Below are positions 75 through 37,163 of a DNA stretch of 40,128 nucleotides, piece after piece. A model generated the notes under the pieces. That model saw nothing but the letters and a program-made list of their open reading frames with translations, made no database searches and had not been told where the DNA came from. The first letter of the stretch is position 1; each line of letters starts with the position of its first letter. Both the position numbers and the translations under genes were made by a program. Location: sequence record PV340542; one strand, written 5' to 3'. The stretch comes from Escherichia phage mEp506.

Positions 75-1147
75 TCATTTGTCGATTTCAATTTTGTCCC
101 ATTCCCGTCCACGGCTGTCCCTATACCGCGCCGCCATTGAATCTGATTTATGCCCGAGAAGACGTTGAGCAAACTTATCGCCAATCTGGTTCCGGTATAG
201 CCTCGCTGACAGGCTACGCAGTTCATGGAATGTTGGCGGGTTTCCATCAAATGAGAGTCCAGATGCATTTCTCGCCTTTGTAAAATACTTTGATACTGTT
301 TTCGGGGAAAGCGGATCGTGATGCTTTGATGCGATTATAGTTTCACTGCTGCTGGCCTCCCTGCATTGCTGTAGTGTATCAGCCAATGAGATATTGAGCG
401 CGTCAATCGTTAGCGTTAGTGGAATGGCGAGTTTAGCCCCTGTTTTACTCTGTTCAATGTGAAGATGGTTGTCGTTTATGTCTGACCATTTCATTCTGCA
501 CAAATCGCCTACTCTCTGCCCTGTAACGACAGCCAAATCCATTGCCAGTCTCAGCCAGATTGGGAGCGGTTCGGCTGCATGGTATATCGCGACATATTCA
601 TTAGCTGTCAGTCTTGAACGCCTTACTTCTGATTTTGCTGTGCGGGTTGCTGTTACCGGATTCGTAGCCACATGCCCCTCGGCTATTGCCTCACGAAAAA
701 CGTCAACAAGGGTTGACCTGATTAATTTTGCGGAAGCCGATTTGCCTTCTGCTACGTAGGTGTTTAGCATTGCTGCCACCTCTTTCGTTGATATGTCAGC
801 GAGCGGTTTGTCCGGCAATTTTCTTCGGATTGCTCTGATTTTGCTGGCGTAGTCGAGTAGAGTTTTCGGCCTGATACCCCTCTCGCTGAGGATTGTTTCA
901 TATCGGTCAAGCCACGCATGAAGAGTGATTGCGTCAGCGCCTTTAATTCTGTCTATCAGTGACTCACGCCTGTTCCCGGATAGCAACTCAATGTTGGCCT
1001 GTATAGCTTCAGTGATTGCGATTCGCCTGTCTCGGCCTAATCCAAACTCTTTACCCGTCCTTGGGTCCCTGTAGCAGTAATATCCATTGTTTCTTATATA
1101 AAGGTTAGGGGTAAATCCCGGCGCTCATGACTTCGCCTTCTTCCCAT
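75..1147 (-). CDS. int: lambda-type tyrosine integrase Int, apparently frameshifted near codon 13
   Basis: ORF 75..986 matches lambda Int from ...QANIEL onward. The N-terminal MGRRRSHERRDL is encoded from the ATG at 1147 in another frame; a C4 run (plus-strand gggg 1108-1111) where lambda has C5 breaks the frame. Confidence 0.8.
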
Positions 1148-1343
1148 TTCTGATCCTCTTCAAAAGGCTATCTGTTACTGGTCGATTTAAGTCAACCTTT
1201 ACCGCTGATTCGTGGAACAGATACTCTCTTCCATCCTTAACCGGAGGAGGGAATATCCTGCACTCGCGTACCCATCGACGAACTGTTTCAAGGCTTCTTG
1301 GGCGCCGCTGGCGTGCGTTCCACTCCTGAAGTGTCAAGTACAT
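1125..1343 (-). CDS. xis: excisionase Xis (72 aa)
   Basis: Internal Met of ORF 1125..1433 gives MYLTLQEWNARQRRPRSLETVRRWVRECRIFPPPVKDGREYLFHESAVKVDLNRP..., near-identical to lambda Xis as recalled. Confidence 0.9.
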   Translation of the reverse strand: MYLTLQEWNARQRRPRSLETVRRWVRECRIFPPPVKDGREYLFHESAVKVDLNRPVTDSLLKRIRNGKKAKS

Positions 1344-1429
1344 CGCAAAGTCTCCGCAATTACACGCAAGAAAAAGCCGCATTGATGCGGCGATGGTAGG
1401 TCTGGATATCATTGAGCAATGAACAGGCC

Positions 1430-1546
1430 TCACCGAGTGTGAGGCGGTGTTATTTCATGGTTAGTCCTTGCGTAGCTCGCTGATTCTTCTGTAAGTCTCT
1501 GGTGCTTTGCTATCTCACGCAGTGCCTGATAGTCAATCTTGCTCAC
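1430..1546 (-). CDS. small hypothetical protein (38 aa), GTG start overlapping upstream stop (GTGA)
   Basis: Minus-strand [41 protein letters not shown] with AGGAGG upstream. Below ORF-track length cutoff; speculative. Confidence 0.25.
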   Translation of the reverse strand: MSKIDYQALREIAKHQRLTEESASYARTNHEITPPHTR

Positions 1547-33579: not shown

Positions 33580-33601
33580 GCCACCTTCGGGTGGTTTTTT
33601 T
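33580..33601 (+). terminator. rho-independent terminator immediately upstream of J (near-copy of the one at 32471)
   Basis: GCCACC-ttcg-GGTGG followed by TTTTTTT. Confidence 0.5.
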
Positions 33602-33612
33602 ATGGGCGCAAT

Positions 33613-36600
33613 ATGGCTACAGATAAAGTGTTAAAAGGCCGCAAGGGCGGCAGCTCAAGTTCCCGAACTCCTACCGAACAGCCTGATGATCTGCAATCTG
33701 TAGCGAAGGCAAAAATCCTCGTTGCGCTTGGGGAAGGTGAGTTTGCAGGGCAGCTCACCGGCAAAGATATCTACCTGGACGGAACAGCGCTGGAGAATGC
33801 TGACGGCTCCCAAAACTTCAGCGGGGTAACGTGGGAGTTTCGCGCGGGAACTCAGGCGCAAAAATATATTCAGGGTATTCCCGGTACCGAAAACGAGATC
33901 AGCGTAGGAACTGAGGTATCAAGTGCCACAGCCTGGACGCGCACGTTTACCAATACGCAGCTTTCAGCAGTTCGCCTGCGTCTTAAATGGCCCTCGCTTT
34001 TCAAACAGGAGGACGACGGTGATCTGGTGGGTTACTCGGTCAATTATGCGATTGACCTGCAGACGGACGGCGGCACATGGCAGACGGTACTCAATACCAG
34101 CGTGACCGGCAAAACGACGTCTGGTTATGAGCGCAGCCACCGTATCGATTTACCGCAGGCTGGCAGCACCTGGACAATACGTCTGCGTAAGATTACCTCT
34201 GACGCCAACAGCGCGAAGATCGGCGACACGATGATGCTGCAGAGCTTCACCGAGGTGATTGACGCCAAACTGCGCTACCCGAACACCGCGCTGCTCTACG
34301 TCGAATTCGACTCAAGCCAGTTCAACGGCTCTATTCCTCAAATTTCATGCGAACCGCGCGGCCGCGTTATCCGCGTTCCAGATACCTACGACCCTGAAAC
34401 CCGCACTTATAGCGGTACATGGACCGGTGCGTTTAAGTGGGCATGGACGGATAACCCTGCGTGGATTTTTTACGACCTGGTTGTTTCTGACCGGTTCGGC
34501 CTTGGGCACCGTTTGACCGCTGCGAATATTGATAAATGGACGCTTTATCAGGTTGCTCAGTATTGTGATCAGATGGTACCAGACGGCAAAGGGGGCAACG
34601 GTACAGAACCACGTTATACCTGCAACGTGTACATTCAGGACCGGAACGACGCCTACACAGTCCTGCGTGATTTTGCCGCTATCTTCCGTGGCATGACCTA
34701 CTGGGGCGGGGATCAGATTGTGGCCCTGGCTGACATGCCGCGCGATGTTGATTACAGCTATACGCGCGCTAACGTTGTTGGCGGTCTCTTCACCTATTCG
34801 AGCAGCACCACGAAAAGCCGCTACACCACAGCGCTGGTTTCATGGTCAGACCCGGGTAACGCTTATGCCGACGCGATGGAACCGGTATTTGAGCAGGCGC
34901 TGGTGGCGCGATACGGCTTCAATCAGCTGGAAATGACAGCCATCGGCTGCACCAGGCAGTCAGAGGCGAACCGAAAGGGGCGCTGGGGTATTCTCACCAA
35001 TAACAAGGATCGCGTTGTTTCGTTTGATGTCGGGCTGGACGGAAACATTCCGCAGCCTGGCTACATCATCGCCGTGGCAGACGAGCTGCTTTCCGGAAAG
35101 GTTATGGGCGGCCGCATCAGCGCCGTTAACGGTCGCGTTATCAAACTTGACCGCGTAGCTGATGCAGCACCAGGTGATCGCCTTATTCTCAACCTTCCCT
35201 CCGGAGCGTCGCAGAGCAGGACCATTCAGGCCGTGAACGGGGAATCAGTCACAGTCACCACGGCATACAGTGAGACGCCACAGGCCGAAGCTGTTTGGGT
35301 GGTTGAATCTGACGAGCTCTACGCGCAGCAGTATCGAGTTGTCAGCGTTTCCGATAACGGGGATGGCACTTTCTCGATTACCGGCGCATGGCACGACCCG
35401 GATAAATATGCCCGCATCGATACCGGAGCCATCATTGACCAACGGCCGGTGAGCGTGATCCCGCCGGGCAACCAGTCGCCGCCTGCGAATATCGTGATCA
35501 GCTCGTTTTCCGTGGTTCAGCAAAATATCAGCGTCGAAACAATGCGCGTGAGCTGGGACCAGGCGCAGAACGCTATCGCCTATGAAGCACAATGGCGCCG
35601 CAACGACGGGAACTGGGTTAACGTGCCGCGCACCTCCACCACGTCATTCGACGTCCCGGGGATTTATGCCGGGCGCTACCTGGTGCGGGTGCGCGCAATC
35701 AATGCCGCAGAAATTTCATCCGGATGGGGCTATTCAGAAGAGAAAACGCTGACGGGTAAAGTGGGCAATCCACCGAAGCCGGTTGGCTTTATCGCCTCTG
35801 AAAACGTGGTGTTCGGTATCGAGCTGAACTGGGGATTCCCGGCGAATACCGACGACACGCTGAAGACGGAAATTCAGTACAGCCTGACCGGTACTGAAGA
35901 CGATGCCATGCTGCTGGCCGATGTGCCTTACCCGCAGCGCAAATATCAGCAGATGGGCCTTAAGGCTGGGCAGATTTTCTGGTACCGCGCGCAGCTGGTT
36001 GACCGCAGCGGTAACGAGTCAGGTTATACCGGCTGGGTTCGTGGGCAGGCCAGTATCGATGTTTCTGACATCACAGATGTGATCCTTGAAGACATCAAAG
36101 GGTCTGAGACGTTCAAAGACCTGATCGAGAACGCTGTGGACAGCAATGAAAAAATTGCTGGCATGGCTGACGACATCAAACAGGCCAACGATGAACTTGA
36201 ACTCCAGGCGCAGGAAATCGCAAAAAACGCGCAGGACATCGGGCAGGTTCAGACCAGCGTTAATGAGCTTTCTAGCACGGTCGGTGATGTGTCGTCTTCT
36301 CTCTCAGATCTTGAGCAGACTGTTGCGACTGCTGATACCGCACTGGGCCAGCGAATCGACAGCATCAGCGTGTCTATGGACGGCATGACGGGCGGGGTTA
36401 AGAACTCAGCCATTGCCATTATCCAGAACGGGCTGGCGCAGGTGGCCACACGCAAAAGGCTTTCCGCGACGGTCGCCGGTAACAGTGCGCAGCTGGATCG
36501 TATTGATGAGGTAATCGTTAACGAGAAGGAGGCAACGGCGCGCTCTCTGCTGAGCCTGCAGACGGATGTCAACGGCAACAAGGCATCCATAAACAGCCTG

Positions 36601-37163
36601 AATCAGACGTTCTCCGACTATCAGCAGGCTACGGCCACGCAGATAAACGGCATAACGGCGACGGTGAACGGGCATACCTCCGCCATCACCACTAACGCTC
36701 AGGCGATAGCCAACGTTAATGGCGACCTCAGCGCGATGTACAACATCAAGGTTGGCGTTTCCAGCAACGGTCAGTATTACGCCGCGGGGATGGGTATCGG
36801 CGTGGAGAATACGCCATCCGGCATGCAGTCGCAGGTTATCTTCCTGGCTGATCGCTTCGCCGTCACCACGGCAGCCGGTAACAGCGTGGCTTTGCCGTTT
36901 GTGATCCAGAATGGACAGACATTCATCCGGGCCAGTTTCATCCAGGACGGCACTATCAGCAACGCAAAGATTGGTAATTTTATCCAGTCGAACAATTATG
37001 TTGCTGGTTCTGCTGGCTGGAAGCTTGATAAAGGGGGACGTTTGAGAACTACGGTTCGACTGCTGGTGAGGGAGCCATGAAACTGACAAATCAGACGATC
37101 AGCGTCAAAGATGGCAGTAATGTTCTTAGGGTGCAGGTTGGCCGATTAACGGGAGTATTCTGA
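33613..37163 (+). CDS. J: host specificity / central tail fibre protein J, C-terminal frameshift (main ORF 33613..37080)
   Basis: 1155-aa ORF with lambda J-like N-terminus and fibronectin-type repeats; the likely true C-terminus TFENYGSTAGEGAMKLTNQTISVKDGSNVLRVQVGRLTGVF is in another frame ending 37163, split at a G5 run (37033-37037). Confidence 0.85.

Follow-up and report, generated by a model that had tools for sequence, protein, structure and literature searches.

Homopolymer frame breaks, probably sequencing or consensus artefacts, in a complete HK022-like prophage sequence that also carries a private holin deletion

Gene content of the window and the six frame breaks

The 40,128-nucleotide (nt) sequence of Escherichia phage mEp506 (record PV340542), referred to here in its full length as the window, represents a complete prophage, lambdoid and of the same type as HK022, HK97 and mEp234, in which conserved genes are interrupted at homopolymer runs. 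Its left part carries int-xis, the early-left genes, a LexA-family repressor gene, a gene in the position of cro, cII, O and a gene for a DnaB-like helicase, and its right part the nin region, Q, holin-R-Rz, terminase, portal, protease, HK97-fold capsid and tail genes, J, cor and a tail fibre gene. Read literally, the sequence has inactivating lesions in two genes of the left part (int and the cro-position gene) and in four of the right part (the holin, tape measure, K and J genes). We checked the breaks by six-frame translation and in the raw sequence, and aligned relatives at each site to compare run lengths. An earlier inspection of the letters alone (the sequence-only reading) had reported a frame break at each of six runs, and every one was recovered at the exact position and in the frame that follows from the loss of 1 base pair (bp); what it counted as six interrupted genes are six sites in five genes, with the tape measure gene carrying two.

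The leftmost break lies in int, which encodes a lambda/HK022-type tyrosine integrase on the minus strand (positions 75 to 1147) and is broken after codon 13 in a run of four C residues (1108 to 1111; GGGG on the plus strand) that is C5 in four of four relatives. The missing base is the sole difference from the intact int of Escherichia coli strain CUPF12 over 1,074 nt, with 0 substitutions, and the exact flanks shared with CUPF12 extend for 1,107 nt to the left of the site and 305 nt to the right. Among about 2,000 E. coli genomes that carry the region, none matches the int region of the window at 100%. The cro-position gene (8060 to 8292, plus strand), which encodes a regulator of 77 amino acids (aa) between the LexA-family repressor and cII, is broken at codon 42 in a C3 run (8184 to 8186) that is C4 in both of the two relatives available. 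Here again the missing base is the sole difference from an intact allele, that of ECONIH5, over 481 nt, and none of the 213 E. coli genomes covering at least 80% of this 481-nt query matches it at 100%. The cro-position protein has a weak match to the PHROG category "transcriptional repressor" and belongs to no Pfam family.

The tape measure gene (27096 to 30375, plus strand) is spread over three frames, with the first break in an A7 run (29117 to 29123) that is A8 in 10 of 10 relatives and the second in a C4 run (30012 to 30015) that is one base longer in 10 of 10 relatives (C5 in 7 of them); the stretch from 26800 to 30400 measures 3,601 nt in the window and 3,603 nt in the two E. coli relatives. 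K, the gene for a tail-tip protein with JAB/MPN and NlpC/P60 domains (31473 to 32182, plus strand), is broken at about codon 101 in a G4 run (31772 to 31775) that is one base longer in 21 of 21 relatives, and the best E. coli matches to a 201-nt query over this site all span 202 nt. J, which encodes the tail-tip or host-specificity protein (33613 to 37163, plus strand), is broken 42 codons before its end in a G5 run (37033 to 37037), again with a longer run by one base in 21 of 21 relatives (G6 in 20). An exact-pattern scan for the flanks of the J site returned 16 viral contigs from IMG/VR, all with G6, and the same kind of scan returned no match among genome contigs. An exact-protein search with the truncated J, the truncated tape measure product and the intact 430-aa tail fibre likewise gave no match. 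A search with tail protein L retrieved only relatives of 95-98% identity, which could be used as comparators and none of which is the same prophage. The type of tape measure region found at 26800 to 30400 is rare: 2 of 5,426 complete E. coli genomes have it, at 97.3% identity. The adjoining L protein, however, has entries in 883 blocks of an assembly collection, which points to wide circulation of the tail module with this L protein outside the E. coli complete-genome set.

A comparison with close relatives had been called for by the sequence-only reading, and its outcome is uniform: every available intact relative is one base longer at all six sites. Most relatives carry the plain longer run and a few have a substituted base inside it (GGGTG and GGGAG in K), with the length always greater by one. 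When one base is added per site, the five genes become single open reading frames (ORFs) of 357, 77, 1093, 236 and 1183 aa, the exact lengths found in relatives, and the repaired Int, cro-position protein, tape measure protein, K and J are 100%, 100%, 99.4%, 99.2% and 99.6% identical, respectively, to intact proteins found elsewhere (Int to the CUPF12 integrase, the cro-position protein to the 77-aa protein of ECONIH5, the tape measure protein to that of ETEC1749, and J to that of CUPF12). Pfam confirms the identity of Int (Phage_integrase and Arm-DNA-bind_1 in the repaired protein), of K and of the holin. Since only about 16% of the bases of the window lie in runs of at least 3, uniform placement of deletions would not be expected to put six of six in runs.

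Some frame changes in phage genes are functional, and one might ask whether the six breaks are sites of programmed ribosomal or transcriptional slippage, or phase-variable contingency switches. The A7 run of the tape measure gene, phased as GC-A AAA AAA, does resemble a -1 slippery heptamer on direct reading, and might by inference be taken for one. The C3, C4, G4 and G5 runs at the other sites are not efficient slippage sites, and phages of this type do have a genuine programmed frameshift, which is found in the window at the tail chaperone pair G/T (26373 to 27061) and is separate from the six sites. Each of the five genes is one uninterrupted ORF in every relative, so that a two-frame architecture is not conserved; on this ground functional frameshifting is excluded, and we regard it as extremely improbable for these sites.

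The overall architecture of the prophage is undisturbed. Both ends of the window (1-30 and 40100-40128) fall exactly on the HK022-type attachment (att) core CTTTAGGTGAA, which in E. coli strain CUPF12 sits between torS and torT, and since the ends coincide with att cores no host DNA is included, which suggests that the record is of a prophage that was curated or extracted. At 40.1 kb, against 40.75 kb for HK022, the window is complete in both synteny and size, and comparison with relatives, ORF by ORF and for synteny, revealed no insertion sequence (IS) element, large deletion or rearrangement in it. Gene order and att core are held in common with HK022, mEp234 and HK97 (Hendrixvirinae) and with the CUPF12 prophage at torS-torT; among these the integrase is 100% identical after repair and the head and tail modules are 95-99.8% identical at the nucleotide level. 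The int, tape measure, K, J and holin genes are intact in all four of these relatives, whereas they are broken in the window as given. The window is a mosaic, 95-99.8% identical to its relatives segment by segment, and no single relative spans the whole of it. Between the N region and the repressor, the segment at 5572 to 7220 is 99% identical to one annotated in mEp234 as a HicA/HicB/HicC toxin-antitoxin-chaperone module, a moron-type insert adjoining the immunity region. A non-coding 12-nt stretch, GTGTTATTTCAT, lies upstream of xis at 1447 to 1458 and is lacking in both aligned relatives. A nonsense mutation had been suspected near 2494; this position is upstream of the abc2 start codon, and abc2 is intact.

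Direction of run-length change and the substitution load

Unbiased scans of the window, by DNA alignment against all fetched loci and by tblastn of the ORFs of relatives against the window, extended the comparison beyond the five genes. The T run just to the right of cos (19149 to 19154) is T6 in the window and T7 in three of three relatives. The G run that follows the major capsid gene (24314 to 24317) is G4 in the window and longer in 11 of 11 relatives (G5 in 8), with exact flanks totalling 1,135 nt. The T run after the major tail gene (26334 to 26339) is T6 in the window and T7 in eight of nine relatives, and is probably a further private contraction, to judge from this alignment, which could also be natural polymorphism since one relative has T6 as well. 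All three runs are non-coding, and it follows from the shortening of those at 19149, 24314 and probably 26334 that the contraction process is independent of coding status. The exact-match flanks of the nine contracted sites, six coding and three non-coding, total 6.4 kb.

Exact flanks of 14 nt allowed 1,480 runs of at least 3 bases to be tested against relatives; 7 of these runs are shorter in the window than in every relative, none is longer, and an alignment-based table agrees with this exact-flank scan on the contraction-only direction. Altogether eight private contractions are well supported (six coding and two intergenic), with a full count of 8-11, as against no such expansion. The sequence-only reading had described the lesions as consisting entirely of 1-bp losses in homopolymers, which is true of the six sites; its list was incomplete, in that it omitted the non-coding contractions and a 14-bp deletion in the holin gene. 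Contraction is unevenly distributed over the classes of run, with about 4 of 23 G/C runs of five, 1 of 2 G/C runs of six, about 2 of 9 A/T runs of seven and 0 of 127 A/T runs of five and six affected. Several other candidates were set aside: the sole candidate expansion, at 5638, depends on one or two poorly matching relatives; the difference at 33595 is a C-to-T substitution relative to the common CT6 allele; the T7 run at 16861 is one that the window shares with three relatives; and the runs at 19078 and 25830 were not used as evidence either way, being naturally length-variable among relatives. Of these last two, the G run to the left of cos (19078 to 19083) is G6 in the window and G8, G9 or G11 in relatives, and the T run before the major tail gene (25830 to 25835) is T6 in the window and T7 to T9 in relatives.

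As a control, each of 33 relatives was taken in turn as the focal sequence under a strict filter (348 kb with at least 2 comparators). The relatives gave four private isolated homopolymer indels in 348 kb, two of them shorter and two longer and all in T runs; the window gave five in 35 kb under the same filter. In tblastn of relatives' ORFs, no frameshift of this kind in a conserved gene was seen in any of the 33 relatives. Leaving the holin deletion aside, the lesions in the window are thus confined to runs, are contractions only, fall alike in coding and non-coding DNA and are accompanied by no excess of substitutions, as is typical of the artefact class. From these comparisons we consider it likely that the six frame breaks are sequencing or consensus artefacts, in which case the five genes concerned would most likely be intact in the DNA itself. 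G/C runs of at least 5 and A/T runs of at least 7 may have been called one base short when the DNA was sequenced (by nanopore, PacBio CLR, 454 or Ion Torrent) or the consensus was built, and these under-calls would then never have been polished out; six of them, lying inside genes, would appear as frameshifts, and at least two more would lie in intergenic runs. Polishing may plausibly have failed because short-read correction misses prophage-like repeats in a genome.

The contrary case, in which all of the lesions are real, would make this a recently and multiply inactivated ("grounded") prophage, with replication slippage in several runs plus the holin deletion, in a lineage that is, for example, deficient in mismatch repair or has been exposed to a frameshift mutagen. 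We consider this unlikely, even though real indel rates are known to climb exponentially with run length. The one-directional record of eight well-supported contractions against no well-supported expansion is difficult to reconcile with it, as are the absence of any IS element or large deletion and the intact architecture. The substitutions tell the same story. Private to the window are 64 synonymous and 31 non-synonymous coding substitutions, and the claim that nonsense substitutions are absent stands, since 0 of these 95 are nonsense and there is no in-frame stop in any repaired frame. In the sequence comparison this is the pattern of purifying selection and not that of a neutral pseudogene. 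Relaxed selection on the disrupted genes is not apparent either: int is unchanged downstream of its break, and in the tape measure gene the codons that differ downstream of the first break number 26 synonymous and 3 non-synonymous. Compared with intact alleles, neither the int nor the cro region has any substitution.

An expectation for real lesions can be taken from mismatch-repair-deficient E. coli, in which 30,061 substitutions were recorded against 5,324 small indels (PMC8510543). With at least 5.6 substitutions for every indel, as measured there, 8-11 real indels would be accompanied by roughly 45-110 neutral substitutions, mostly non-synonymous and a few of them stops. From the synonymous/non-synonymous split we estimate about ten neutral-era substitutions, with an upper bound of about 43 that holds only if every private non-synonymous change is recent. 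Many of the private substitutions are clustered and were clearly brought in by recombination, and we have relied on the synonymous/non-synonymous split and on the zero-substitution int and cro blocks in place of a clean indel-to-substitution ratio. Errors at Dam/Dcm methylation motifs, of the kind met with in nanopore data, were sought among the private substitutions, and no clear pattern emerged.

The ET220 prophage and other known systems

Searches with the int site identified one RefSeq complete genome, that of E. coli ET220 (NZ_CP100981.1), with the same C5-to-C4 run length in int. The gene concerned is a different, lambda-type int, 77% identical to that of the window and annotated as "frameshifted" by RefSeq. 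It belongs to a lambda-like prophage (about 3.176-3.224 Mb) in which 18 coding sequences are annotated as "frameshifted" within about 47 kb, and the flanking host genes are clean. Compared with phage lambda, runs of at least 4 in this prophage have lost one base in 17 cases and are expanded in 1, the contractions being concentrated in G/C runs of at least 5 and A/T runs of at least 6, classes of run also affected in the window, and the int-to-exo block is present twice in the ET220 genome. The ET220 prophage likely represents long-read homopolymer error left unpolished in repeated DNA. It resembles the window in being a complete, syntenic, lambdoid prophage with many frameshifted genes and the same int contraction, and it differs in being another phage, of lambda type, with a higher density of breaks. 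The ET220 case shows that the pattern recurs in public assemblies, and by analogy suggests how an effect specific to prophages could arise, seemingly through the escape of repeated DNA from short-read polishing, although the step from ET220 to the window is inferred.

The recurrence at the same int run could also be read as a true mutational hotspot, which would favour real lesions; the 18 frameshifted genes of ET220 are themselves best read as artefact, and this weighs in the other direction. The C4 length of int recurs only in this different int gene and is homoplasy. The run lengths of the window in cro, tape measure, K and J, as well as the holin deletion, were found in no other sequence searched, so that apart from the int length all alleles are private to the window, which also argues against real lesions, and none is shared by descent with related lysogens.

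The systematic errors of long-read sequencing are mainly homopolymer indels, and false pseudogenes are a recognized result (PMC8011154). Assemblies with residual errors of this class share with the window their one-directional single-base errors in runs, in coding and non-coding DNA, within genes that are otherwise perfectly conserved, and differ from it in that the 14-bp holin deletion falls outside the class. The preference of the sequence-only reading for homopolymer error over pseudogenisation is therefore supported on several sides: by the direction of the changes, the non-coding contractions, the substitution pattern, the synteny and the ET220 example.

Prophage decay of the type seen in the cryptic prophages of E. 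coli (DLP12, Rac, Qin and e14) takes the form of large deletions, IS insertions and nonsense codons under relaxed selection. With these the window has in common, at face value, the disruption of essential phage genes. The mixed spectrum of lesions that marks them is not found in the window, one 14-bp deletion apart.

The holin deletion and the meaning of the breaks

The holin gene (lambda S family; 15657 to 15966, plus strand) has a frameshifting 14-bp deletion at 15876/15877. In relatives the site reads CTTATA[TAACGAGCGTGTTT]ATCGG, and the bracketed TAACGAGCGTGTTT is missing from the window. The product stops after residue 73 of 107, with 6 foreign residues added, and this truncation removes the C-terminal third of the protein, including a hydrophobic stretch of 18 residues that would form the third membrane span if this holin resembles lambda S in topology. 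The deletion lies outside any homopolymer, and its junction has no microhomology, on which ground a microhomology- or repeat-mediated origin was rejected. On direct reading, part of the deleted segment appears to fall within an imperfect palindrome, CTCGCTTAT/ATAACGAG. None of 1,146 E. coli complete genomes carrying this holin has the deletion, and an exact-pattern scan of genome, viral and metagenome contig collections found no match to its junction. This is probably a real private lesion, distinct in kind from the homopolymer sites, with a rare assembly error as another possibility. If real, it would block lysis and leave a lysis-defective prophage stranded in its host.

Several considerations weigh against reading the six frame breaks as artefacts. 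The call comes from sequence comparison, and real slippage also prefers homopolymers, climbing with run length. The polarisation of private substitutions is imperfect, as the relatives are mosaic and 95-99% identical; were all 31 non-synonymous changes recent, the ratio of indels to substitutions would depart only mildly from that of a mismatch-repair-deficient lineage. Finally, a 14-bp deletion is not something that this class of artefact normally yields, and some real damage to the prophage is likely. It is because the holin deletion falls outside the error class that "artefact" does not mean a fully intact prophage. For those who would take all of the lesions as real, the same deletion, probably real and not in a homopolymer, offers a prophage that may already be released from selection.

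It also gives some room to a mixture, in which most sites are artefact and one or two of the six (e.g., int or the A7 run of the tape measure gene) are real slippage in a holin-disabled prophage. A prophage that has no working holin would be partly sheltered from selection and would tolerate an occasional real frameshift, and an individual real contraction cannot be told from an artefactual one by sequence alone. The six sites behave alike, however, in being private, in having flanks that match intact alleles and in belonging to classes of run length in which the non-coding contractions also fall; since all six behave identically, one cause is simpler than a mixture, which we regard as very unlikely.

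If all seven lesions were real after all, an otherwise pristine HK022-like prophage would have been disabled very recently by a burst of single-base losses in runs together with the holin deletion, for example in a passing episode of mismatch-repair deficiency or frameshift mutagenesis, and the window would capture prophage domestication at its outset, ahead of any build-up of substitutions. On the reading that we prefer, in which the six breaks are artefacts, they are most likely an ordinary data-quality issue, and not a biological feature, in an unremarkable representative of a familiar group of phages. To take them at face value would then be to miscall as "defective" a complete and probably inducible HK022-like prophage and to list five false pseudogenes. 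Prophages in public genomes that are laden with frameshifts and otherwise pristine should be suspected of carrying unpolished homopolymer errors, and that of ET220, partly duplicated in its genome, is a second example. The main value of the finding is in quality control, and the private 14-bp deletion in the holin gene is the sole lesion of this prophage that merits biological attention.

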